Shown piece after piece: positions 346 to 29,050 of a stretch of DNA of 32,000 bases. The stretch is from contig NZ_JAYKGW010000176.1 in the NCBI RefSeq assembly GCF_035285525.1, positions 21,702 to 53,701 of the forward strand, given 5' to 3'. Position 1 is the stretch's first letter. Every line of letters begins with the position of its first letter. The notes under the pieces are model-generated. The model searched no databases. It was given only the letters and a program-made list of their open reading frames with translations, and was not told the DNA's origin. A program made the position numbers and the translations under genes. This DNA comes from Okeania sp. (lineage in GTDB: Bacteria > Cyanobacteriota > Cyanobacteriia > Cyanobacteriales > Microcoleaceae).

Positions 346-1845
346 ATGCTCAATGGTCTCATATTAATTCCACTTATAGGTGCAACCATTATTAGTTTTT
401 GGCCAAGCACCCTTTCACCAAAATTAGCCCGTCAATTAGCCCTAATAGTGGCCATAATTACTTTAATATGGTCTGTCGTCCTACTTGTCCAATTTAATCC
501 CCAAGATTCCCATCAACAATTCGTTTTTATACTTCCCTGGATAGACTCTCTGGGTTTAAGCTACTCCCTCGGAATAGACGGTTTATCCTTACCATTAGTA
601 GTATTAAATGCTCTACTAACGGCTATTGCCATTTACGCTACAGATAAATCAATTAACAGACCTCGTTTTTATTACTCCCTCATTCTATTATTATCACTGA
701 GCGTATTTGGAGCCTTTCTGGCTCAAGACCTACTACTATTTTTCATCTTCTACGAACTAGAATTAATTCCCTTATACCTATTAATAGCCATCTGGGGAGG
801 ACCAAGACGAGGTTACGCATCGACAAAATTTCTGATCTATACAGCCATTTCGGGAGTTTTAGTCTTAGCTGGATTTTTGGGAGTAGTCTGGTTCAGCGGT
901 TCGTCCAATTTTGCCTACGACCAAGCAGTTGCTAATACCCTACCTTTAGGAACTCAACTATTATTATTAGGGGCAATAGTCATCGGGTTTGGCATTAAAA
1001 TTCCTTTAGTTCCTTTCCACACATGGTTGCCGGATGCTCACGTTGAAGCTTCTACACCAATTTCTGTACTTTTAGCAGGAGTTCTGTTAAAATTGGGAAC
1101 TTATGGTTTGCTGAGATTTGGATTAAATATGCTTCCGGAAGCTTGGGGTTATATTTCTCCTTGGTTAGCAATATGGGCGGTAGTTAGTGTGCTGTATGCT
1201 TCATTAATTGCTATTGCCCAAAAAGACATGAAAAAAATGGTCGCCTATAGTTCAGTTGGTCACATGGGTTACATTTTATTAGCTAGTGCTGCAGGAACTC
1301 CCCTCAGTATTTTAGGTACAGTATTCCAAATGGTAAGCCACGGTCTCATTTCTGCTTTACTATTTTTATTAGTGGGAGTAGTCTACAAAAAAGCTGGTAC
1401 TAGAGATATAGATGTCTTGCGTGGTTTATTAAATCCAGAACAAGGTTTACCAATGATTGGTAGTTTGATGATTTTGGGAGTAATGGCAAGTGCTGGTATT
1501 CCGGGAATGGCTGGATTTATTTCCGAATTTTTAGTATTTAGAGGCAGTTTCAATGTTTTTACAGTTCCGACGCTTCTTTGTATGATTGGAACAGGATTAA
1601 CATCGGCGTATTTCTTGCTTTTAGCTAACCGAGTATTTTTTGGCAGGTTATCTCCAGTAGTTATTAATTTACCTTCTGTGCAATGGTCTGATAGAATACC
1701 AGCAATTATTTTAGCAGTTTTGATTGTGATTTTAGGACTACAACCTAATTGGGTGGTGCGTTGGACTGAAACTGAAGCTAATAGCATGAGTATTGTCTCG
1801 CAGGTTGTTGAGAGGTCAGCGATCGCCTCAATAATTGATAATTAG
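346..1845 (+). CDS. ndhD4: NAD(P)H-quinone oxidoreductase (NDH-1) subunit 4, D4-type (CO2-uptake NDH-1MS' complex)
   Basis: A 499-aa polytopic membrane ORF with complex-I chain 4/M motifs (FYELELIPLYLLI, WLPDAHVEA, KKMVAYSSVGHMG). The D4 subtype is inferred from the downstream short ChpX/CupB-type gene. Confidence 0.8.
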   Translation: MLNGLILIPLIGATIISFWPSTLSPKLARQLALIVAIITLIWSVVLLVQFNPQDSHQQFVFILPWIDSLGLSYSLGIDGLSLPLVVLNALLTAIAIYATDKSINRPRFYYSLILLLSLSVFGAFLAQDLLLFFIFYELELIPLYLLIAIWGGPRRGYASTKFLIYTAISGVLVLAGFLGVVWFSGSSNFAYDQAVANTLPLGTQLLLLGAIVIGFGIKIPLVPFHTWLPDAHVEASTPISVLLAGVLLKLGTYGLLRFGLNMLPEAWGYISPWLAIWAVVSVLYASLIAIAQKDMKKMVAYSSVGHMGYILLASAAGTPLSILGTVFQMVSHGLISALLFLLVGVVYKKAGTRDIDVLRGLLNPEQGLPMIGSLMILGVMASAGIPGMAGFISEFLVFRGSFNVFTVPTLLCMIGTGLTSAYFLLLANRVFFGRLSPVVINLPSVQWSDRIPAIILAVLIVILGLQPNWVVRWTETEANSMSIVSQVVERSAIASIIDN

Positions 1846-2233
1846 GGTTTTCTGATTAAATCAGGACTTAGGCAAATTAGTAGAGGGCGAATACCATTCG
1901 CCCCTACAGATTATGTATATTTTCTTGTTGCTTAAATCCTAATAAATACCGCGATATTATACAGCAGATTTCATATCAGTGAAGCAAACATAAGACAGCC
2001 TAGAAGGCTGTGTTACAAAAGATGCAGAAATATGGAAAAAATTAGCTAGTTCTTGAATTTGATTTTCTGACAGTTAAGATTTGCCATTCAATACTTCATA
2101 ATAGGATAAATTAATTGCCTAAAAAAGGAACTGAATCTTGAAGAAAAAGTAGAGATTCTTCTTATAAAGCTTTCAGAAATTCGACACCACAAATATTAGG
2201 AATTAGTTCCTATTTTTATTCATAGTTTATAAA

Positions 2234-2338
2234 CTATAGCAATACTAAATAGGTTGCGATAATAAATCAAAAAGTCAATAAAACAACTGATTTATCGGGA
2301 ACCGTAACTTTTACCTATTTCCTGTTCCCTATTCCCTA
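2234..2338 (-). mobile_element. MITE-like element, family B, truncated copy with one terminus only
   Basis: It starts with ctatagcaatactaaataggttgcga, the reverse complement of the cgcaacctatt.agaattgctata terminus seen at 23009, 24560, 29226 and 29350. It then runs through the aaaaagt.aataaaa segment and GGGAA(C/T)AG heptamers. The second terminus is absent. Confidence 0.5.
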
Positions 2339-2358
2339 GCGCGTAGCGCCATAAAAAA

Positions 2359-2639
2359 ATGAGTGTTAATGTGAAATTTCCAGAATAATTGTTGATTGCT
2401 TGTCGTGAAGAAAAAGAAGTTTTTCAGCGACGAGTAATGGTTTTAACTTTGGGTAAACTTTATGAGGAAGGAAAAATTTCATCAGGAGTTGGTTCGGAGA
2501 TTTTGGGATGCGATCGCGCTCGAGTTTTATCGTCTAATTAGCGAACCAGGTTTTGGTGTTATTAACTAGAGCTTCTGCTGAGTTTGAGGAAGAAGCAAAG
2601 ACGAGTCGGGATTTAGGTGAGAAATTGTCTGGTCTATGA
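2359..2639 (+). pseudogene. Decayed UPF0175-family antitoxin remnant
   Basis: Pieces in three reading frames reconstruct an antitoxin-like sequence: MSVNVKFPE*, ..VLTLGKLYEEGKISSGVGSEILGCDRAR.., ..FYRLISEPGFGVIN*, ..ASAEFEEEAKTSRDLGEKLSGL*. Its stop overlaps the next gene's ATG in an ATGA motif at 2636-2639, which is typical of TA pairs. Confidence 0.6.
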
Positions 2640-3108
2640 AAGTTGTTGTTAATGCTATCTAATTGCTTTGGCTATCTTACAACGTTTGGAACTTTTGCCC
2701 CAGTTATTTCAGGAAGTTTTTGTCCCTCCTATTGTTTTTCAAGAAGTGGCCATTCAGGGTGCTAATAGACCAGGTAGGGGGAATATTGCTAGTCAGACAC
2801 AGATGATTATCCAAGCTCCCGAAGCTAATTCAACTATCGAACCTCTGCTTCTAGGATTAGATGCTGGAAAATTTCAGGTCATTTTGTGAGGCCGTGAACT
2901 CGAAGCTGATTGGGTATTAATTGATGAGCGTTTGGGAAGGCGTGTTGCTCTAAATTTAGGTTTGCCAGTGAAGGGAACTTTGGGAGTTTTGCTGGTAGCT
3001 TTTCATGCAGGTATGATTTCTAAGATAGAAGCAAAAGAATCAGTACAGGAATTAGTTAGAAATGGGCTTCGTCTTAGTTCCCAACTAATAGAAATGTTTG
3101 CATCATAG
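2636..3108 (+). pseudogene. Decayed DUF3368 / PIN-like toxin remnant
   Basis: MKVVVNAI* lies in frame 2. The sequence then continues in frame 1 as ..LIALAILQRLELLPQLFQEVFVPPIVFQEV...LLGLDAGKFQVIL. An in-frame TGA at 2887-2889 is followed by GRELEADWVLIDERLGRRVALNLGLPVKGTLGVLLVAFHAGMI... up to the TAG at 3106-3108. That makes one frameshift plus one nonsense codon. Confidence 0.65.
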
Positions 3109-3286
3109 TTGGACAAATTTTAGAAGAGGCGTTCATTAATTGATATATGATTATGTTATAATAAGGCGCTACAAATTTATGATGTAGAAGTTCCTAATAA
3201 TCTCGACTCAGCTATATTTTAATTTTACTAAATATGAGTCTTATTTTATAAACAGATAATAACCAACTAATTTAGGGAAAAACAGT

Positions 3287-4417
3287 ATGACAAACACAAT
3301 TTTAAAATCTCAAAAACATCCACTTTCAGAATATATTAATCGCTTAAAATCTGGTCAAGCTCTATTAAAAGATAGCCCAGAAAATGTCTTAGAAGTTGTG
3401 GGAATTTTGAAAAGTTATGGCATTGTTTTAGATGCTTATTCTAAAAATCTTAATTACATTGCCGAATATCAATTTTTAGAAATGTTTCCCTTCTTTAAAT
3501 ACTTTAATGGGGAAATTTCAGTAGATAAATATTTCAAGTTTATGTGGCATGACAGAATTAATTTTGAATATGCAGAATATTGCATGAAAGGAATGTTATG
3601 GCATGGAGGTGGAGGTCTAGATAAATATTTAGATTCAGACCAATTTAAACAATTAGCAAAAGCAGCAATAGATGCCAAAGCTATAGGGAATTTAGTCTTA
3701 ATGCCACTTAATAAATTATTTCCAGATTTTTTACCAGATTTGGTACGTCAACAAGCTTACTATAGTGGTTTAGGTCAATTTTGGCGGGTAATGAGTGATA
3801 TTTTTATGACCTTATCTGATAAATATGACCAAGGTAGAATGACATCTATTCCTCAAGTAGTAGAGCATATTTTATCAGGGTTAGTTGCAGCAGCAAATTT
3901 ACCAATTACTTTTGCTGTAAATATTAAAGGTAAACATTATGAAATAATTCCTAAATCAGTAGGTTTAACATTTTTAATGGATACAGCAGTTCCTTATGTT
4001 GAAGCAATTTTTTTCCGAGGAACTCCATTTTTAGGAACAGTTTCTTATAATGCTCAAGCTCAACAAATCAACCCCGATCAAAGTCAATTTACTTATGGTG
4101 CTTTATATGCCGATCCTTTACCTATTGGTGGTGCTGGTATTCCACCTACATTATTAATGCAAGATATGCGACATTTTTTACCAGATTATCTTCTAGAAGT
4201 TTATTACAAAACTAACCGAGGTACAGATAATTTACGAGTGAAAATTTGTGAGACTTTTCAAAAGTCAATGTTCTGTGTCACAACCGCAGCAGTTTTGGGT
4301 TTAGCACCTCATCCTTTAGATACAGAAAACCCAGAGGAACAAGCAGCAAATCAAAGTTATTTAGAATATTGGATGGATAGATTTTTAACATCAAGATTAC
4401 AAGTTGTGAATAGTTAG
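3287..4417 (+). CDS. chpX: CO2 hydration protein, ChpX/CupB type
   Basis: A 376-aa ORF with ChpXY-family motifs as I recall them (MWHDRINFEYAEYCMKGMLWHGGGGLD). Its length fits the shorter ChpX/CupB type, and it lies downstream of an ndhD gene. Confidence 0.78.
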   Translation: MTNTILKSQKHPLSEYINRLKSGQALLKDSPENVLEVVGILKSYGIVLDAYSKNLNYIAEYQFLEMFPFFKYFNGEISVDKYFKFMWHDRINFEYAEYCMKGMLWHGGGGLDKYLDSDQFKQLAKAAIDAKAIGNLVLMPLNKLFPDFLPDLVRQQAYYSGLGQFWRVMSDIFMTLSDKYDQGRMTSIPQVVEHILSGLVAAANLPITFAVNIKGKHYEIIPKSVGLTFLMDTAVPYVEAIFFRGTPFLGTVSYNAQAQQINPDQSQFTYGALYADPLPIGGAGIPPTLLMQDMRHFLPDYLLEVYYKTNRGTDNLRVKICETFQKSMFCVTTAAVLGLAPHPLDTENPEEQAANQSYLEYWMDRFLTSRLQVVNS

Positions 4418-4437
4418 TTATTAGAACTTACGCAAAT

Positions 4438-4466
4438 AAACCCGGTTTATAGGAGAAACCGGGTTT
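4438..4466 (+). terminator. Stem-loop downstream of chpX, a possible intrinsic terminator
   Basis: AAACCCGGTTT-ataggag-AAACCGGGTTT forms an 11-bp perfect stem followed by a T-rich tail, ctagttt. The same CCGGTTT motif recurs in other intergenic repeats, so it may equally be a repeat-family hairpin. Confidence 0.4.
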
Positions 4467-4482
4467 CTAGTTTCCCCTAGCG

Positions 4483-4583
4483 AAGTCCTGTTATTAGACA
4501 TCTCCAAAAATTAAAAAGATCATCAATTATTATCTGGAAATAATTAATTACTCCCCCTGTTTCCTCTTTTATGGAGATGTCTA
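4483..4583 (+). mobile_element. MITE-like element, family A, copy 2
   Basis: aagtcctgt..tagacatctccaaaaa ... ttttatggagatgtcta. It is collinear with copy 1. Confidence 0.6.
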
Positions 4584-4678
4584 TTTGATAATTTCTAACA
4601 ATTATAACTACTTTAGCAATCCTATTTCAAAGGAAGAAGAAAGAAGAAGGAAAAAACCTTTAATAACAAGGAATAAAT

Positions 4679-4765
4679 AATAGAGATAACTATCTAAAAT
4701 TAATGAGAGCAGCTATCTTTTAAAAATTTATGATCGACATCTACCTTTTGTAGCATTCTTTTTTC
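4679..4765 (+). repeat. Dispersed repeat, family E, copy 1
   Basis: atagagataactatctaaaattaatgagagcagctatctttta...catctac is matched by atagagatcattatctaaaattaattggagtagctattttta...catctaac at 24964-25050. Confidence 0.5.
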
Positions 4766-4938
4766 AAAATGGTATTATGGAGAAACCGAGTTTATGAACT
4801 ATTTTTTTTGGTTTTAACCAAAATATCACGGCAATAAACCCGGTTTCAGTCAAATTAACCATTATCAAAATTCTCACAAATAATTTAGAATTGCTATTCT
4901 ATATTTGTCTACCATTCTATTCATAAATAATCAGAAGA

Positions 4939-5970
4939 ATGAATAAGTTAGTCCATTACTTTGAAAGAAATGCTAAATTCATAATAGTCCTGATATTATT
5001 TCTCTTTTCAGTTGCTTTAATATTCCTTCCTAAACCACCTAAAAATCTAAATGACTGGATATTAATTTTGAATAATATTGGATTTAACCTCTTAGGTGCT
5101 GTAATCGCCTTTTTGGTTTTTCAAGTAATTGTTGAAGGAATAAATAAATTAGGTGAACAACGTGGGGTTAAAATTGATGCTCTAAACAAAGATGATTTTA
5201 TTAAAAAAGTAATCAAGTCTAAGAATACGGTGAGAATTATGGAAACCTGGACTGATTTACTTAGTTCTAATCAATTTTTAACGACTTTTAGTGATGCTAT
5301 AGAAGCATCAGTCAGGAACAATAATACTATATTTGAAATTTTATTACTAAATCCAGAAGATACTTATTTAGTGAAAAGACGTCAAGAAGATTTATCCAAT
5401 AATGAAGATGTTGAAATAAACATTTATCGAAGCATAAGTACAATTCAAAAAATACTCCAAAACTTGGGGAATATGGGTAAAAATTTTCAAGTCAAACTGT
5501 ACAGTAGAAATCCATCTCTAGCTATTTACATGAATGACGACGATCTCTTTTTAACTTTTTTTAGAGCTAATCTTAACACTTCTCAGGGAGAGCAGTTAAA
5601 GCTTCCTAGAAACTCAACTATTGGAACGTTTATTATTGAGGAGATGTTTTATGAAATATGGGAAGATACAAAGAATACGAAAGACCTTAACAATATAGTT
5701 TTTTACTGTATTAATATTAACAATAAACTCTATGATGTAAAATATATTTTTCAAGAAAATGTTTTCTATATTCAGAGTTCAGATTTAACAACTGATAGTA
5801 TCAACAACAATATTTTCCAGGACACTATTATTGAGGTAGATGATCAACAATACAAATTAACACCAGAAGCAAAAAGGAAAGAAGATTTACCTCTTAGGGT
5901 TCAAGAACTTTTTGATAATAAATATCCGACAACAGAAGATATTTTCTTTGAATTAATTAAGTTGAGATAG
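4939..5970 (+). CDS. Hypothetical membrane protein: N-terminal 2-TM hairpin plus a roughly 280-aa soluble region with no recognised family
   Basis: A 343-aa ORF with two hydrophobic helices (FIIVLILFLFSVALIFL and IGFNLLGAVIAFLVFQVIV). GC was about 28% in a 100-nt hand count, against about 39% in ndhD. The soluble part alternates beta-alpha segments (VRIMETWTDLL, FEILLLNPEDT, FQVKLYSRNPSLAIYMNDDDLFLTFF). This faintly resembles non-catalytic PLD-like or DUF5919-type domains, with low confidence. Confidence 0.6.
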   Translation: MNKLVHYFERNAKFIIVLILFLFSVALIFLPKPPKNLNDWILILNNIGFNLLGAVIAFLVFQVIVEGINKLGEQRGVKIDALNKDDFIKKVIKSKNTVRIMETWTDLLSSNQFLTTFSDAIEASVRNNNTIFEILLLNPEDTYLVKRRQEDLSNNEDVEINIYRSISTIQKILQNLGNMGKNFQVKLYSRNPSLAIYMNDDDLFLTFFRANLNTSQGEQLKLPRNSTIGTFIIEEMFYEIWEDTKNTKDLNNIVFYCININNKLYDVKYIFQENVFYIQSSDLTTDSINNNIFQDTIIEVDDQQYKLTPEAKRKEDLPLRVQELFDNKYPTTEDIFFELIKLR

Positions 5971-5977
5971 ATGAACT

Positions 5978-7285
5978 TCAGCTATCAAGTTCAATTTTTG
6001 AAATATTAATCATCCTTCTAAAATTATCATAGGATTTACCTGAATTAATCAGATAATTTACCTTAGATATACATTCTTGAATCTGTTCTATCAAGTCTTT
6101 TTCTTTTAGTAAAAAAGCATTATTTGCTACAAGTATAGATGCTGCATTGGCAAGAATAAAATCTCTTTTACCTTGGATTTCATAAGTATTTTCATTGGTT
6201 AAAATTCTATAAAATAAATCCCTTTCAGTTTCAATTTCTTTCTGTTCCTCTATTTGGTTTATTGGTACTCTTTTAAGCGAGATATCTTCAGGAGAAAATT
6301 CCAGTATTTTGATGCTATCTAAATCAATTTTAATCAATAGGTTATTTGGTCTTTCTTCTTGAACATCTCGATAAGCATTTGATATCTCATCTATTCCTTC
6401 GTATGAGTGAACAATTATGCCTGTACTTCCTAGTTCTAAATATATGCCAATCACATAAGGCAGCATCCCTATATGAGATATACCAGTTGTATGGTTAACT
6501 GGATTTAATAACTGTGCATTTGGAGCTATAATTTTAAATATATCTATTGAAATAGGCAAATCTAAATTTCTCACAGTTGAATGCCAATTATTTTGCTGAT
6601 TCTGATAATTATATTCTAAAGTTTTTAAGTTTTCTTCCCATAATTCTATTCTGGCTTGCTTAAGATTATTGGAGTAAGGAAAACCAAGCTCGCTTAAAGT
6701 AATATATGCAAAATTATACTTTTCTAAACTTTCATTTATAGCCTTGATATCTATCCCTTTTTCATTATACCCAAATGCTTTAATTGCTTGATAGCTTCCA
6801 TGCAAAGAAGTAACATTACCTGTACCAGTTTTACAAATTCTGATTAAAGGTGAAACTATAATTGAAGCCATAGTTGTTGCATGAATTGTTTTGATTAAAT
6901 CTCCTCCACTTCCAAAAGCATGATCGTGTAGTAACAACTTGAGATTATTATTGTTTTTATGAATATGACTTAAGGTCTTATTTCTAACATAATTAGTCAA
7001 AAAGTTTACTTGTCTGAAGCCAACCTTACCATTGCCTGGTGCTATTTCCAAAAGAGTATTTTTTATGCTTTCTACTTCTTCATTTGGATTGATACATTTC
7101 TCAAAATAATTAATCAGCTTTTTGTCACTTATCGGACTAATTATTGCTTCATTTTCTAAGAATTTCCTAAAAACATCTGCTATTGAACCAAGTTTATTTA
7201 TGACTTCATTATTTTTAAGGTTTAATTGCTGAGAATAAAGTAAACGAAAATCTTCTTTTTTTATTGTAATAGTCCGAGGTGTCAT
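5978..7285 (-). CDS. Highly divergent TrpD-fold protein (glycosyltransferase family 3: anthranilate phosphoribosyltransferase / nucleoside phosphorylase superfamily)
   Basis: A 435-aa ORF. By eye, FGSGGDLIKTIHATTMASIIV..ICKTGTGNVTSLHGSYQAIKAFGY aligns with the TrpD pattern GTGGDG.NTFNISTAAA.V..VAKHGNR.VSSKSGSADVLEALG. IFKIIAPNAQLLNPV aligns with TIFNLLGPLTNP, and IIVHSYEGIDEIS aligns with VVHG.DGLDE.S. The C-terminal RDFILANAASILV...INSGKS aligns with RD.VLLNAA.AL...IDSGKA. GC was about 24% in a 100-nt hand count. Confidence 0.65.
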   Translation of the reverse strand: MTPRTITIKKEDFRLLYSQQLNLKNNEVINKLGSIADVFRKFLENEAIISPISDKKLINYFEKCINPNEEVESIKNTLLEIAPGNGKVGFRQVNFLTNYVRNKTLSHIHKNNNNLKLLLHDHAFGSGGDLIKTIHATTMASIIVSPLIRICKTGTGNVTSLHGSYQAIKAFGYNEKGIDIKAINESLEKYNFAYITLSELGFPYSNNLKQARIELWEENLKTLEYNYQNQQNNWHSTVRNLDLPISIDIFKIIAPNAQLLNPVNHTTGISHIGMLPYVIGIYLELGSTGIIVHSYEGIDEISNAYRDVQEERPNNLLIKIDLDSIKILEFSPEDISLKRVPINQIEEQKEIETERDLFYRILTNENTYEIQGKRDFILANAASILVANNAFLLKEKDLIEQIQECISKVNYLINSGKSYDNFRRMINISKIELDS

Positions 7286-7651
7286 ATCAACAAATTAAGT
7301 TTAAAGTATTTGATGAAATCTTTATTAAGAGCCACTACAGTGGGAGCATCTTCCTCCAGCACTAGATATTTCTTGTTTCCTGTATACCATTAAGTATGAA
7401 AGTATAATTAACAGAACTTGCCCAAAATATTAAATCACCAAAAAATTAGGGTATGTGCTTCCCCTTTTAAGGAGATGAAAAAAATATTTAACTTCAGCAT
7501 TTTCAACCTCCGAGTTTAGTCGGAGGTTCCCTCTCTACTGATAACTGATAACTGAAATAACACACTACTTGTAAAAGTTAACAGTCGTTAACCCCTGCTA
7601 GATATGCTTGTTTTAGGTCAGTCCTGGTTAATTTTATATACAGCTATTTCA

Positions 7652-7755
7652 GACTAATGATGTACAAGTTTAAAAAGTGAAATTATTGTAGCATAGGCAT
7701 CTTGCCTGTTAGCTGTGTACCTAATAGCAACGGGAAATACTCTAATTATTTAGGG
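7652..7755 (+). repeat. Dispersed repeat, family D, copy 1
   Basis: gactaatgatgtacaagtttaaaaagtgaaattattgtagca...agctgtgtacc...caacggg is matched at 12057-12160. A related core, ggcatcttgcc..gtgtacct, occurs at about 18975-19010. Confidence 0.5.
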
Positions 7756-8030
7756 ACGGACAAAAAATTATTTAAATATATCTGGAATAACTAACCACCA
7801 TTTAGAAAAATATGTGATAATATGTGCCTCTAGTTATACTCATCATTATAAAAGTGGCCATTAGGATGTATAAATATAATGGTTATAGGTTAGTAATATT
7901 CTATTCACCAATAACCACACAGGGTACATAGATATATCTGTCTTAATTTAGAGGATTCAATTAAAGTGTTAGGGTTGATATGAAAAATATATATTCAGAA
8001 AATCGTTTGTTCTTTCTCAAAGGTACCCAA

Positions 8031-10094
8031 ATGGGAAAAAATCTTATGTTGCGTTGGTTACTACCCAGTATACTCAGCGTTTTTGTCTTAGGAGTTCCTT
8101 CTGAAGCAACAACTCTAGAATCTTGGCGCTTTGAACAGGATCGGAACCAATTGTCCTTTACCACACAAGGTGGTGTTCAGCCAAAAGCCCAATTAGTTAA
8201 TAACCCAACTCGATTAATTATAGACTTGCCAGGAACAACTTTAGGTGGTGTCCAGACTTCCCAAGTTGTCGGTGGGGCAATTAAAGCAATTAGAGTAGGA
8301 CAATTTAATCCGGAAACAGCTCGAATAGTAGTAGAACTAAATAATGGTTATACTATTGACCCAAAAGAAGTAGAATTTCAGGGGATTTCTTCTAGCAGAT
8401 GGAATGTACAAATACCAACACCTAAACTAATTACTTCCACTACAAATATTGATATTGCACCTCAGTCTTCTCCCTCACCATCTCAAAATTCCCAACCTTT
8501 ACGTCGTCCACCATCTCAAAATTCCCAATCTTCAATTCTACTGCCTCCACGTTCACCCTCTCCTCCTCGCAGAATAGAAAGGTCAATCAATCAAAATAGA
8601 CCAAAACCTAATAATACTCTTTCCTCCAATTCAACTGCTACTAATGGGACATCTACTCTTGTACAAGATATCGAAGTAACAAAAGAGGGAATAGTTCTCA
8701 AAACAAGTGGTAAATTACCAGAAATTGAGCTGAAGCAGAGCAAAGACCGCAACTGGATGACCATTGATGTTCTTAATGCTACTTTAACTATCAAAAATTT
8801 CCAGCAAAATCAAAAGTTTGATGAGTTTGGATTAACAATTACTCGACTAACTCAACATTCAACTTCACCAGCAGTAGTTCGTTTAACAATAAAGTTCCCA
8901 GATAAAAAGACTAAATGGCAAGCTCGTGCTTATATGGGAGGAATAGCATTATGGCCTGAAGGAGAAGCACCACCGACAATTAATCAAGGTACTGGTTTTG
9001 CTCTAATTAACTCTCTGGAATTAAAAAATGGTAATGAATTAGTTATTACTGGAGATAAACCCCTAAATTATACCACTGGTTGGGATTCTGAAACAGATGC
9101 TTATGGAATTACTATATACAATGCTAAGGTAGATAGGCGATTTAGATTACCACCCCAAGAAGTTGGCAGTCCTTTAGTCTGGACAAAAATACGTCAGGAA
9201 GGTCCAGAAACAGTTTCAATTCTGGTTAAACCTGCTACTAACGTTAAAATTGCAGAAGTAACTCAGATTACTCCAGAAAAGTTATCTCTGGCAATGGGTT
9301 GGGGTAGTATCGGGAATGCACCTCCGGGTTGGAAGCCAAATCCTAGACCAGAATCTTCTAATACGAGACCTTCACCATTTCCCAGGAGAGAAAATTCACC
9401 GCCTCAAAATTCTCGTGGAAACACTACTACAACGAGAAGATGGCCTTTCCCTCCCCCTCGTCGCAATACTCAACAGCCTAATACTAATAATAGTAGTTCT
9501 AATTCTCGTTTTGCCTTGCCTAATCAACTACCTCGACGTAATGGACGATTATTGATAGTGATAGACCCCGGACATGGGGGACCGACTGATTTGGGTGGGG
9601 TTGGTTTTAATGGTATACGGGAAAAGGATATTGTGTTGCCTATTTCATTAGAGGTAGCTAAAATTCTGGAGCAGAATAATATACAGGTGCTTCTGACTCG
9701 GGAGACAGACCGGGATTTGGATTTGCCACCACGAGCAGAATTTGCTAATCGGGTAGGAGCAGATTTATTTGTGAGTATTCATGCTAATGCTATTAGTATG
9801 AGTCGTCCTGATGTAAATGGTTTAGAGACTTTTTATTATGAAAGTGGACTTGTTTTAGCACAGTATATTCAGAATAGTATGTTGCAAGCTTTTCCGACTA
9901 TGAATAATCGTGGTGTGAAGCAAGCCCGTTTTTATGTATTAAGAAAGACTGAGATGACTGCTGCTTTGGTAGAGGTCGGTTTTGTTACTGGTAATTATGA
10001 TTGGAGGATACTTGCAGATCCTGCTCAACGTAGTCGGATGGCGCAGGCGATCGCTCGTGGCATATTAGAATATGTTAAAGCTTATTCTCGATAA
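8031..10094 (+). CDS. amiC: N-acetylmuramoyl-L-alanine amidase, AmiC type (AMIN domains, Pro-rich linkers, Amidase_3 domain)
   Basis: The ORF is open from 7980. The ATG at 8031 gives a signal-peptide-like N-terminus (MGKNLMLRWLLPSILSVFVLGVPSEA). AMIN-like modules are present (..NPTRLIIDLPGT..IRVGQFNPETARIVVEL..). Two P/S/Q/N/R-rich linkers are present. The C-terminal amidase_3 domain reads LIVIDPGHGG...KDIVL...LLTRETD...DLFVSIHANA. Confidence 0.85.
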   Translation: MGKNLMLRWLLPSILSVFVLGVPSEATTLESWRFEQDRNQLSFTTQGGVQPKAQLVNNPTRLIIDLPGTTLGGVQTSQVVGGAIKAIRVGQFNPETARIVVELNNGYTIDPKEVEFQGISSSRWNVQIPTPKLITSTTNIDIAPQSSPSPSQNSQPLRRPPSQNSQSSILLPPRSPSPPRRIERSINQNRPKPNNTLSSNSTATNGTSTLVQDIEVTKEGIVLKTSGKLPEIELKQSKDRNWMTIDVLNATLTIKNFQQNQKFDEFGLTITRLTQHSTSPAVVRLTIKFPDKKTKWQARAYMGGIALWPEGEAPPTINQGTGFALINSLELKNGNELVITGDKPLNYTTGWDSETDAYGITIYNAKVDRRFRLPPQEVGSPLVWTKIRQEGPETVSILVKPATNVKIAEVTQITPEKLSLAMGWGSIGNAPPGWKPNPRPESSNTRPSPFPRRENSPPQNSRGNTTTTRRWPFPPPRRNTQQPNTNNSSSNSRFALPNQLPRRNGRLLIVIDPGHGGPTDLGGVGFNGIREKDIVLPISLEVAKILEQNNIQVLLTRETDRDLDLPPRAEFANRVGADLFVSIHANAISMSRPDVNGLETFYYESGLVLAQYIQNSMLQAFPTMNNRGVKQARFYVLRKTEMTAALVEVGFVTGNYDWRILADPAQRSRMAQAIARGILEYVKAYSR

Positions 10095-15743: not shown

Positions 15744-15854
15744 TAGACATCTCCAAAAATAAAAAACAGAATCAATTATTATCCATAAATCATCAATTAC
15801 TCCCCCCTATTCCCTGTTCCCTATTCCCTGTTCCCTCTTTTTCGGAGAGGTCTA
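15744..15854 (+). mobile_element. MITE-like element, family A, copy 3
   Basis: tagacatctccaaaaataaaaaacagaatcaattatt ... ctttttcggagaggtcta, with an internal TTCCCT(G/A) heptamer run. Confidence 0.6.
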
Positions 15855-19040: not shown

Positions 19041-19571
19041 CTAAATATCTATATCTATAACAATGTAACCTTGATTATTTAATACAATATTATCCTTTCT
19101 TTCAAAAACAGTTTGAATAAACAACGGACAATTTCGGTAACAAAAAACTACTTCTTTTTTACCTAAAATACTGACGCTATTAAAATACAAAGGTAATTCT
19201 GCTAATAGATATTTAACCGCAATTTCTAACCGATAATTACTAATATCTGTTTGAGTTTCTACTACCTGCCTAGAAGTTTCAAGACAGTTGTTTCTAAATT
19301 CAATATCATTAGCATATTTATCTTCATAAAATTTTAGTGTTGAGAGATAATTTATGTTTTTATTCAAATACTGGGAATCTATAATTAGTGCTTCAGCTTC
19401 ATTCATTGACAAGTCTAATCCTACTAATGCTCTCAAACATTTATTTTTCAAATAATTAGCTTGCCTTTTAGCTTTTTTTGTAGCTTTAACTTGATCATAT
19501 TCTAAAGCCATTAGTGTATAAACATAAGCTTCGTCCGGAATAACAAGATTAAAACTCTTAAAATTATTCAT
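19041..19571 (-). CDS. Hypothetical protein, 176 aa, no recognised family
   Basis: An intact ATG-initiated ORF in a low-GC setting between the two paralogue copies. It looks mostly helical in the centre, with beta-like N- and C-termini. I recognised no motif. Confidence 0.5.
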   Translation of the reverse strand: MNNFKSFNLVIPDEAYVYTLMALEYDQVKATKKAKRQANYLKNKCLRALVGLDLSMNEAEALIIDSQYLNKNINYLSTLKFYEDKYANDIEFRNNCLETSRQVVETQTDISNYRLEIAVKYLLAELPLYFNSVSILGKKEVVFCYRNCPLFIQTVFERKDNIVLNNQGYIVIDIDI

Positions 19572-20160: not shown

Positions 20161-20250
20161 TAGACATCTTCAGAAAAGAGGAAATCGGCGGAAAGAATAG
20201 ATGATTTGTGTCTGATAATTGATTTAATTTTTTATTTCTGGAGATGCCTA
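20161..20250 (-). mobile_element. MITE-like element, family A, copy 4, inverted
   Basis: The reverse complement reads taggcatctccagaaataaaaaattaaatcaattatcagaca...cctcttttctgaagatgtcta, nearly identical to copy 1. Its last 3 nt (cta, 20248-20250) form the TAG stop of the adjacent CDS. Confidence 0.65.
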
Positions 20251-20841
20251 ATCAGGATAATAATATTCCCACCAATTACCATATATTTTTACTATTCTAT
20301 CTGATTGGTGATTGCGTATATATAAACAATTTTCTTTACCAAGAGGCACATAAGCAATACCAAATTCATCAAAAATCCAGGTATCAGTTGTAAAGAAAGT
20401 ACATCCTTCATACTGCCTAATAAACTCAACATAAAACCATCCAATTCTGGTATTGTCTTGGCAGAAATTAGAAGCATTTACACAATTAATTAAAGCAGAT
20501 TCAGATAATTTTAATCTAATTATATCTGTATAAGTTACTAATAAAATGTATAAAAGAAACAATACTGGTACTCCTATAGTTTTGATTAAAGTTTTTATCT
20601 GAGAATATTTCAGTTTGTTTTTTTTGACAAAATGTATGAATATTCTCACAACTTCTATGAGCCAATAAATGCCGATAATAAAACAAAAAATCGGAGGCAT
20701 TATCAGAGAAATTAAAAATAATGAAAATTCAAGGAAAGACCTAGAAATTAATATGATTTGCCAGGCTTCAGCTAGAGTTACAATTAAACAAAGAAAAAGT
20801 ACAATTATTTCCCAATAATTTTTGATTAGTTTAAACTTCAA
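20248..20841 (-). CDS. Hypothetical membrane protein (copy 2, intact): 3 TM segments plus a 4-Cys C-terminal domain
   Basis: 197 aa. A TTG start lies 7 nt after a strong AGGAGG. The hydrophobic N-terminal half is followed by NCVNASNFCQDNTRIGWFYVEF..GCTFFTTDTWIFDEFGIAYVPLGKENCLYIRNH..IYGNWWEYYYPD. It is about 80% identical at the protein level to copy 1. Confidence 0.6.
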   Translation of the reverse strand: MKFKLIKNYWEIIVLFLCLIVTLAEAWQIILISRSFLEFSLFLISLIMPPIFCFIIGIYWLIEVVRIFIHFVKKNKLKYSQIKTLIKTIGVPVLFLLYILLVTYTDIIRLKLSESALINCVNASNFCQDNTRIGWFYVEFIRQYEGCTFFTTDTWIFDEFGIAYVPLGKENCLYIRNHQSDRIVKIYGNWWEYYYPD

Positions 20842-28972: not shown

Positions 28973-29050
28973 GAAATAGGGAACAGGAAATAAGTAATTA
29001 ATAATTTTATAGATAAAAATTGATTTATTTTTGATTTTTGGAGATGTCTA
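28973..29050 (-). mobile_element. MITE-like element, family A, copy 5, inverted and lacking one terminus
   Basis: The reverse complement reads tagacatctccaaaaatcaaaaataaatcaattt...attaattacttatttcctgttccctatttctt. The element ends at the HD-gene stop codon without the second inverted repeat. Confidence 0.55.

Follow-up and report, generated by a model that had tools for sequence, protein, structure and literature searches.

Do two genes that lie tail-to-tail between housekeeping genes in Okeania sp. belong to one functional unit, and if so, what does that unit do? The question is raised by a stretch of 32,000 nucleotides (nt) of contig NZ_JAYKGW010000176.1 (hereafter the window), in which orfA (4939-5970, plus strand), an intact open reading frame (ORF) for a membrane protein of 343 amino acids (aa), meets orfB (5978-7285, minus strand), an intact ORF for a TrpD-fold enzyme of 435 aa. 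Each of the two proteins finds an Okeania entry at NCBI with an identity of 100%. The pair is flanked by chpX (3287-4417; PF10216, E 1e-188) on the left and by amiC (7980-10094; Amidase_3 plus AMIN domains) on the right, and its coordinates are exactly those given in a first-pass annotation of the sequence, which had described the locus as a very low-GC islet and a candidate accessory or defence-like module. The comparative analyses show that the pairing of a TrpD-like with a DUF5919-type gene is real, conserved and undescribed, that its framing as a foreign low-GC islet is wrong, and that the defence reading is unsupported so far.

The functional link between the two genes, rated in the first-pass annotation as the weakest part of its claim, has become the best-supported one. 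About 30 TrpD-like loci were compared (L numbers denote homologue loci outside the window), and a DUF5919-like gene adjoins the TrpD-like gene in 13 of them, in L002 as a remnant, and lies nearby in a 14th (L013). The linked loci span cyanobacteria, Chloroflexota and unassigned contigs from metagenome-assembled genomes (MAGs) or metagenomes; homologues of the two genes are thus neighbours in many other genomes, and the case named beforehand as counter-evidence, that they never co-localise, was not found. A metagenome scan with a narrow orfA-subfamily alignment returned three loci. Three arrangements occur. Adjacent, convergent genes with a partner carrying two transmembrane (TM) helices are present in the window, in Waterburya (L001), Scytonema hofmannii (L020), Mastigocladopsis (L021) and a Nostoc MAG (L032), and in L033 and L035; in the same layout the partner is frameshifted in Dolichospermum (L022-L024, the same split in all three assemblies retrieved) and reduced to a 61-aa C-terminal remnant in Dulcicalothrix (L002), and both genes are decayed in a syntenic sister contig (L027). 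The convergent gaps in these other genomes range from -4 to 170 nt. Elsewhere the partner lies upstream and co-directional, either in the 2-TM form (L031) or in a DNA-binding form, namely in the Chloroflexota locus L016 (14-nt gap; a putative ribbon-helix-helix (RHH) N-terminus read by eye, without a Pfam match) and in L034 (gap of about 97 nt; a Pfam-supported XRE helix-turn-helix (HTH)). In L013, on one Ktedonobacteraceae contig, the genes are about 2.2 kb apart.

When the orfA partners of seven loci are compared in pairs, their identities co-vary with those of the orfB partners (r = 0.93); the pair is inherited as a unit, and the genes flanking it differ in every genus. A block shared by L021 (4145-11491) and L032 (3791-9314) holds a tyrosine integrase, the TrpD-like gene, the orfA homologue and a gene for a 416/417-aa protein that is 78% identical between the two loci, so that in Nostocales an integrase-associated element may carry the pair. 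A conserved genetic coupling of the DUF5919-like and TrpD-like families, independent of the output domain, is shown by these comparisons. An adaptor domain common to both proteins was considered and rejected, at an hhalign probability of 0.1%.

By its sequence, orfB is a TrpD relative that stands outside the TrpD equivalog. Glycos_transf_3 (PF00591, E 1.8e-12) is the sole Pfam domain found, and the score against TIGR01245 (76.1 bits) lies below the equivalog cutoff of 199.05. The AlphaFold2 (AF2) model, with 26 homologues in the alignment, is confident (pLDDT 88.7, pTM 0.91), and its best Foldseek match is Mycobacterium tuberculosis TrpD (4n5v, E 2.8e-13, TMt 0.80), aligned over about 405 columns at about 15% identity; identities to TrpD structures lie between 14 and 16%. 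All of the top-50 Protein Data Bank (PDB) structural matches of the model are TrpD, as are all 25 matches in a profile search of PDB sequences with the orfB family; a Foldseek search of the BFVD viral structures gave no match. Thus orfB shares with TrpD (EC 2.4.2.18; PF00591/PF02885; TIGR01245) the two-domain fold over nearly its full length, and also the loop binding phosphoribosyl pyrophosphate (PRPP), the phosphate-binding Lys and the Mg2+-binding DE pair. G125-S-G-G-D129 (6899-6913, minus strand) aligns to the PRPP-binding GTGGD loop of TrpD, D299-E300 (6386-6391, minus strand) aligns to its Mg2+-binding DE (DGLDE/GMDE; G-x-D-E), and K152-T-G-T155 (6821-6832, minus strand) aligns to KHGN/KHGA of the M. 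tuberculosis TrpD chains; all three motifs are invariant, with GSGGD, the phosphate-binding K152 and the DE pair unchanged in 26 homologues. This bears out the earlier description of a divergent TrpD-fold protein that keeps its PRPP motifs.

The differences are concentrated elsewhere. The acceptor-site His and Asn of the TrpD motif KHGN are both Thr in the orfB family. In M. tuberculosis TrpD these residues, H136 and N138, line the anthranilate site, and an N138A variant is among the PDB entries matched by orfB. With 435 aa against approximately 345, orfB exceeds M. tuberculosis TrpD by about 90 residues, and it carries extra family-conserved residues such as W234 and W216, among 57 invariant alignment columns in the family. 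Invariant P203 and R212 (GFPYS..L..AR), in a stretch left unaligned by HMMER, are probably the counterparts of the HPA and ARR acceptor-channel elements of TrpD. The replacement of KHGN by KTGT, with GSGGD, K152 and the DE pair kept, argues for PRPP transfer to an acceptor other than anthranilate, and orfB is very probably, as predicted from these motifs, an active PRPP-using transferase.

The family is rare: a search of 5.8 billion proteins gave 32 clusters (90% identity), and one of 185,579 species genomes gave 19 loci. Its members come from cyanobacteria, Ktedonobacteria and other Chloroflexota, Sorangium and Polyangiales. The other outcome that the first-pass annotation had named as counting against its proposal, a common paralogue in a fixed neighbourhood, hence does not apply. 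Two further identities for orfB were rejected. A nucleoside phosphorylase of the NP-II type (thymidine/pyrimidine/AMP) is contradicted by the lack of a PYNP_C domain and by structure and sequence matches that are all TrpD. TrpD2/YbiB, a nucleic-acid-binding protein (PMC10123104), resembles orfB in being a TrpD-fold paralogue recruited outside tryptophan synthesis. However, no YbiB chain was found among the PDB matches at E<=0.01, the model of a cyanobacterial TrpD paralogue, NF005635 (PRK07394), gave only E 0.13, and the retention of the PRPP and Mg2+ motifs in the orfB family argues for catalysis. TrpD2 proteins are not known to have PRPP-dependent activity.

The partner, orfA, matches nothing in Pfam, NCBIfam or PADLOC besides a chance-level hit to Pfam DUF5347, and the first-pass view of a 2-TM protein with an unassigned soluble domain holds at that level. 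The 2-TM hairpin (4960-5154, plus strand) comprises helices at approximately aa 8-35 and 40-72 (Kyte-Doolittle windows >1.6), and these N-terminal hydrophobic helices are kept in relatives. The start of the second helix carries a conserved N-x-G-x-N-L-L-G motif, and N46, L51, G53, V55, A57 and F61 are invariant in the alignment of the close orfA subfamily. The NCBI annotation of the protein (P0033) begins at an internal Met, gives 300 aa and omits the first helix; the alignment of homologues supports the 343-aa start at 4939. A putative ligand-binding, DUF5919-like core follows (5221-5688, plus strand; approximately aa 95-250, from family alignments), with conserved E102-T-W104, L135-L-L-(N/D)-P139 (N138 in orfA), R148, P192-S193, F237 and W241. 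A beta-rich C-terminal domain (5701-5967, plus strand; approximately aa 255-343) ends in F-x-x-K-Y, and is present throughout the 2-TM subfamily and absent from the HTH and RHH versions. Invariant across a 25-member orfA alignment are P139, R148, P192, F237 and, in the C-terminal domain, K328.

The extent of the orfA family emerged only with exhaustive searches. Word-indexed searches with orfA found three relatives and a later one with an alignment added one protein, while an exhaustive HMMER search with the family profile recovered 1026 representatives (50%-identity clusters) at E<=1e-3 and 332 at E<=1e-10. Most of these relatives have 270-390 aa and two N-terminal TM helices. Among 60 sampled, 30 match DUF5919 (PF19319) at E<=0.01 (best 7e-10) and two match PLDc_2; the partner in L013 scores 22.8 bits against DUF5919 (cutoff 23.5). 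In other relatives the same core lacks the TM hairpin and is fused to an XRE HTH, a LuxR HTH, TIR_2, DUF4062 or TPR. A constant core with exchangeable 2-TM, HTH or TIR partners is, we infer, the signature of a ligand-sensor domain, as in CARF, SAVED and cNMP-binding domains. Of the AlphaFold and Foldseek analyses suggested at first pass, that of orfB gave a confident TrpD fold and that of orfA a poor model (four-sequence alignment, pLDDT 54.5, best in the C-terminal domain at 63-83), with which Foldseek found no match at E<=0.001. Weak, non-significant Foldseek matches include the phospholipase D (PLD)-fold proteins MITD1, Zucchini, PssA and F13, and a PDB sequence search with the family profile gave compositional TM matches only. 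The core has no HKD motif (HxK(x)4D), and no conserved His or Lys pair in the 25-member alignment. The PLD-like domain is therefore predicted to be non-catalytic, and a phosphodiesterase or transphosphatidylase role is unlikely. The cardiolipin synthases of the ClsA type (2 TM plus PLD domains) likewise place a PLD-like domain behind an N-terminal hairpin, and differ from orfA in this very motif. Judging from its relatives, orfA has a soluble core of the same family as the regulators with the XRE-HTH plus DUF5919 architecture of PF19319, but with a 2-TM hairpin in place of the DNA-binding domain and an added C-terminal domain.

What the pair does may be proposed from these features. The chances seem about even that orfA and orfB are one conserved accessory module, in which a small-molecule enzyme is combined with a cognate ligand-sensing partner and a membrane output. 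In such a module orfB would move phosphoribose from PRPP onto a nitrogen acceptor (an amine, an enamine/imine or a heterocycle), and the DUF5919-like domain of orfA would bind the substrate or product of orfB. Where the DUF5919 form is a DNA-binding one lying upstream, it would regulate transcription of the enzyme operon in the manner of a one-component regulator; the 2-TM form would instead translate binding of the ligand into a change at the membrane, the simplest case being that it gates or assembles an oligomeric pore or channel. As the module is dispensable, patchy and often decaying, it presumably belongs to a conditional response, such as one to stress, in conflict or in the handling of metabolites, and not to core metabolism or the synthesis of tryptophan.

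Several observations weigh against a module of this kind. The coupling of orfB to orfA through a ligand is deduced from gene adjacency and domain architecture, and since orfA falls below the Pfam thresholds and its model is poor, the PLD-like or sensor assignment is carried by its relatives. The convergent orientation in cyanobacteria means that the two genes are not co-transcribed there. No DUF5919-like neighbour is present in Fortiea (L003), Sorangium (L008), Polyangiales (L015) or L025, and orfA homologues stand alone in L028 and L029. The locus of Calothrix 7103 (L018) has a truncated TrpD-like gene and no partner. The TrpD-like gene is intact where the partner is frameshifted (Dolichospermum), a remnant (Dulcicalothrix) or absent (Fortiea); in Dolichospermum (L022-L024, 8321-9620), where 62 collection blocks index the TrpD-like gene and 24 of their contigs were examined, the orfA homologue is split by a frameshift into 293 plus 129 aa, so that the enzyme outlives its partner there. 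Finally, 11 Ktedonobacteria loci are without a DUF5919-like neighbour and have sigma-like and HTH-STAND-WD40 genes instead. In the Ktedonobacteria (L004-L007, L009-L014, L017 and L019; approximately 1100-7300 per locus) a divergent HTH-NB-ARC-WD40 STAND gene (about 1200 aa) and a sigma70-region-2-like gene (216-262 aa) precede the TrpD-like gene, and a gene for a Bcp-type peroxiredoxin or an NCS1 permease often comes next. The conserved three-gene order implies a tight, lineage-specific regulation of the TrpD-like enzyme. A cross-phylum unit of sigma factor plus TrpD-like gene was considered and rejected, the Ktedonobacterial and cyanobacterial sigma-like neighbours not being specifically related.

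The neighbourhoods outside cyanobacteria bring forward the alternative that fares best, a purely metabolic one, in which orfB salvages or transforms an imported or oxidase-generated nitrogen compound by N-phosphoribosylation and the DUF5919-like protein regulates or localises the enzyme. The cyanobacterial 2-TM version would then be a sensor or anchor tethered to the membrane that neither kills the cell nor forms a pore. We regard this as possible, if doubtful. Permease, oxidase, monooxygenase and RidA genes lie in operon-like positions next to the TrpD-like gene. An NCS1 cytosine/purine/thiamine-type permease is encoded directly downstream in L005, L006 and L019, a DAO-family FAD oxidase adjoins in L013 and in Sorangium (L008), and a LodA-like oxidase plus a LodB-like flavoprotein are downstream in L025 and L026. 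A Bac_luciferase monooxygenase follows 9 nt downstream in L034, a FAD_binding_2 enzyme lies upstream in L035, and in L015 RidA is encoded 13 nt downstream, with a divergent LysR regulator. Canonical TrpD condenses PRPP with an enamine, 2-aminocrotonate, and enamines of this kind are removed by RidA (PMC4725005). Since this enterobacterial IlvA-TrpD-RidA route to phosphoribosylamine has a TrpD-fold enzyme antagonised by RidA, and RidA in L015 and imine-generating flavin or quinone oxidases in L008, L013 and L025 are found beside the present family, an oxidase-generated amine or enamine is a concrete possibility for the acceptor of orfB. The retention of all PRPP and Mg2+ residues and the likeness of the upstream HTH/RHH-type DUF5919 genes to one-component regulators agree with a metabolic role. 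However, the enterobacterial reaction is a side activity of canonical TrpD, and none of the metabolic neighbours adjoins the cyanobacterial pairs. Furthermore, the neighbours vary by lineage so that no single pathway emerges, the conserved polar/glycine motif of the 2-TM hairpin exceeds the needs of a passive anchor, and a rare and repeatedly lost module would be unusual for a useful salvage route.

A role in anti-phage abortive infection, in which the TrpD-like enzyme would respond to infection by making a phosphoribosyl-containing signal that is bound by the DUF5919-like domain and causes the 2-TM protein to oligomerise and permeabilise the membrane, appears rather unlikely. The combination of an enzyme with a 2-TM protein carrying a sensor-type domain is suggestive of it, as are the sporadic distribution, varying genomic location and frequent decay of the pair. 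Relatives of orfA in which this domain is joined to TIR and DUF4062 exist, and one of these matches the PADLOC TIR and SAVED-TIR models. Neighbours of a mobile or conflict type are seen in cyanobacteria: TPR-CHAT, DUF928 and CHASE2 in L001; CHAT-CHASE2, DUF1822, a sigma-like gene and CHAT-nSTAND-WD40 in L020; a sigma-like gene, DUF1822 and CHAT in L002 and L018; an integrase, Tn3 and a patatin in L021; and an integrase in L032. Genes for CHAT and DUF1822 are very abundant in filamentous cyanobacteria, their adjacency to the pair may be due to chance, and the sigma-like neighbours across phyla are not specifically related, so that these neighbourhoods are suggestive only. In L016 a 382-aa protein encoded 1.4 kb from the pair (3583-4731, minus strand) has weak DUF4062 and nucleoside 2-deoxyribosyltransferase-like Pfam matches and a PADLOC "TIR effector" match (2.4e-7). 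Systems of caspase, extracytoplasmic function (ECF) sigma factor and DUF1822 have been described as conflict systems (PMC8195603).

Direct searches for a defence connection were negative. PADLOC-DB v2 returned no family for orfA or orfB at E<=1, tblastn of both against plasmids found nothing (the high-GC family member P0048 retrieved one uninformative Herpetosiphon plasmid gene only), and scans of viral contigs with both family alignments were equally empty. Literature searches on TrpD plus anti-phage and on TrmBL2 plus PLD found nothing usable, and a TrpD-like component is unmentioned in two conflict-system papers of the Aravind group. The window is a housekeeping neighbourhood and no defence island, and the non-cyanobacterial homologues are accompanied by genes for flavin oxidoreductases, RidA, an NCS1 permease and LysR. 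Known signalling systems encode synthase and effector in a co-transcribed operon, a layout from which the convergent genes of every cyanobacterial locus depart. Of the enzyme-plus-membrane-effector defence logic invoked at first pass, a ligand-responsive pairing thus stays plausible, while the defence part is without direct support from the PADLOC, plasmid and viral searches.

The effectors of nucleotide-signalling defence systems, such as CBASS Cap14/Cap15, Pycsar PycTM, type III CRISPR Cam1, other CARF-TM proteins and SLATT 2-TM proteins (PMC7159879, PMC13577387), combine a TM hairpin with a cytoplasmic ligand domain, as orfA putatively does, and are, like orfA, paired genetically with a small-molecule enzyme; the likeness is in architecture only. 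The domain of orfA is DUF5919/PLD-like and not SAVED, CARF, cNMP-binding or SLATT (no Pfam or PADLOC match), the enzyme is a TrpD-fold phosphoribosyltransferase rather than a CD-NTase, cyclase or TIR, and the genes are convergent. A stronger version of the signalling idea, in which the TrpD-fold phosphoribosyltransferase makes a messenger of the phosphoribosyl-amine type and DUF5919 is the dedicated receptor, wired to a 2-TM pore or to a DNA-binding output, strikes us as quite improbable. Under it the cyanobacterial 2-TM pore output would be abortive infection or programmed cell death in the filaments.

That the two genes are unrelated orphans in a decaying islet is very improbable indeed: their convergent orientation and the occasional occurrence of each without the other would fit, but the families adjoin at 13 loci and are separated by about 2.2 kb at a 14th, in three arrangements, which largely refutes it, and the co-variation of identities and the joint pseudogenisation in L027 point the same way. 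The possibility that orfB serves tryptophan synthesis as a housekeeping or back-up anthranilate phosphoribosyltransferase, as implied by the Joint Genome Institute (JGI) annotation of orfB homologues and in keeping with the fold and PRPP motifs, is next to negligible given the sub-cutoff TIGR01245 score (76 against 199 bits), the 14-16% identity to TrpD structures, the KTGT motif, the absence of trp genes near orfB in the window, the rare and patchy distribution (19 loci), the conserved DUF5919-like partner and the pseudogene in the sister lineage.

Neither that sister lineage nor the base composition of the islet points to a recent import. The GC contents of orfA and orfB are 28.4% and 29.0%, against a window mean of 34.1% and 32-41% in neighbouring genes; single 100-nt windows across the two genes range from 22% to 35%, so that the 24-28% reported at first pass from sampled segments was too low. 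GC at third codon positions (GC3) is 0.24 and 0.19, within the window range of 0.15-0.30, and synonymous codon usage correlates at 0.93 with that of the pooled other genes, placing the two among the most typical in the window. The supposedly atypical region is in these respects host-typical within the window, which is largely the result that the first-pass annotation had itself listed as speaking against its view. The residues N, K, I, Y and F account for 38-40% of the orfA and orfB proteins but for 17-30% in most of the remaining genes here, and the GC deficit at codon positions 1 and 2 is due to this enrichment. The low GC is an effect of amino acid composition and not a foreign signature. 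Two further small ORFs of the window, at 19041-19571 (minus strand, 176 aa) and 20248-20841 (minus strand, 197 aa), have a GC content of 0.27 and 38-41% of these five residues.

The metagenome contig L027 is 84-88% identical to the window and has the same order of ndhD, chpX, the pair and amiC. Its chpX is intact and both islet genes are decayed: orfA has TGG changed to TAG at a conserved Trp, plus indels, and orfB a 4-nt insertion. The two genes have thus decayed together in this lineage. The position of the pair at the same chpX-amiC locus indicates that the islet predates the split of the lineages and is long-resident. Low GC as a sign of recent horizontal transfer was accordingly rejected, given the host-like GC3 and codon usage and the synteny in L027.

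The significance of the pair lies first in the enzyme. No earlier description was found of this rare, sharply conserved TrpD-fold subfamily with a dedicated putative sensor partner, and literature searches likewise returned none of its pairing with DUF5919. With PRPP chemistry kept and the acceptor site rebuilt, a new phosphoribosyl-transfer reaction is probably still to be found. Secondly, the neighbourhood tie to one enzyme family offers a first functional handle on DUF5919, a family of about 1000 clusters at 50% identity for which a literature search found no description of function; this tie, together with its 2-TM, HTH and TIR outputs, points to a role as ligand sensor. If the 2-TM form is a ligand-gated membrane effector, the module would represent a new signalling logic in filamentous cyanobacteria; otherwise it would be a small regulated metabolic module. 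Should the messenger and receptor roles prove true, bacterial immune and stress signalling would gain a signal synthase of a new class and, with it, a new receptor domain. Under either reading the pair, with its compact set of two genes, lends itself to experiment.

The layout of the locus in the window bears on how the two genes may be expressed. The stop codons of orfA and orfB are separated by a junction of 7 nt (5971-5977), at which a terminator scan found no terminator-like hairpin. A bidirectional terminator at this point was rejected, as the RNA fold of 5930-6030 does not differ from shuffled sequences (z = 0.04). The convergent layout and the lack of a junction terminator suggest independent, possibly mutually interfering transcription of the two genes. 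The left intergenic flank (4418-4938), presumed to hold the orfA promoter, has promoter-like consensus matches at 4855-4891, and the right flank (7286-7979), presumed to hold that of orfB, has predicted minus-strand matches at 7712-7685 and 7874-7845. The repeat debris reported for both flanks is found on the left side, as an element of about 89 bp resembling a miniature inverted-repeat transposable element (MITE; 4495-4583), and is reduced on the right to one short match (7652-7688). The termini of the MITE-like element are 16-nt inverted repeats (TAGACATCTCCAAAAA / TTTATGGAGATGTCTA), and copies or fragments of it lie in intergenic regions of the window at 26-48, 15744-15806, 20161-20184 and 29028-29050. 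The islet has no HIP1 site, as noted at first pass; none occurs between 2510 and 10047.

The rest of the window is of housekeeping character, with ndhD, a histidine kinase, a Zn/Mn ABC transporter, fumarase, truB and ligA, and a putative murQ-like gene. A 20-nt direct repeat (ATTCTATTCAnnAATAAnCA, 85% identical) at 4914-4933 and 7898-7917 brackets the orfA/orfB islet on the inner side of chpX and amiC. The repeat may be the scar of an old insertion or may have arisen by chance in AT-rich sequence, and its left copy is poorly conserved in the syntenic contig L027. Between ndhD and chpX, with a HIP1 site nearby at 2510, lies an ORF of 73 aa (2668-2889, plus strand; …FVPPIVFQEV…LLLGLDAGKFQVIL), which is read as a putative fragment of a toxin gene of the PIN/VapC type.

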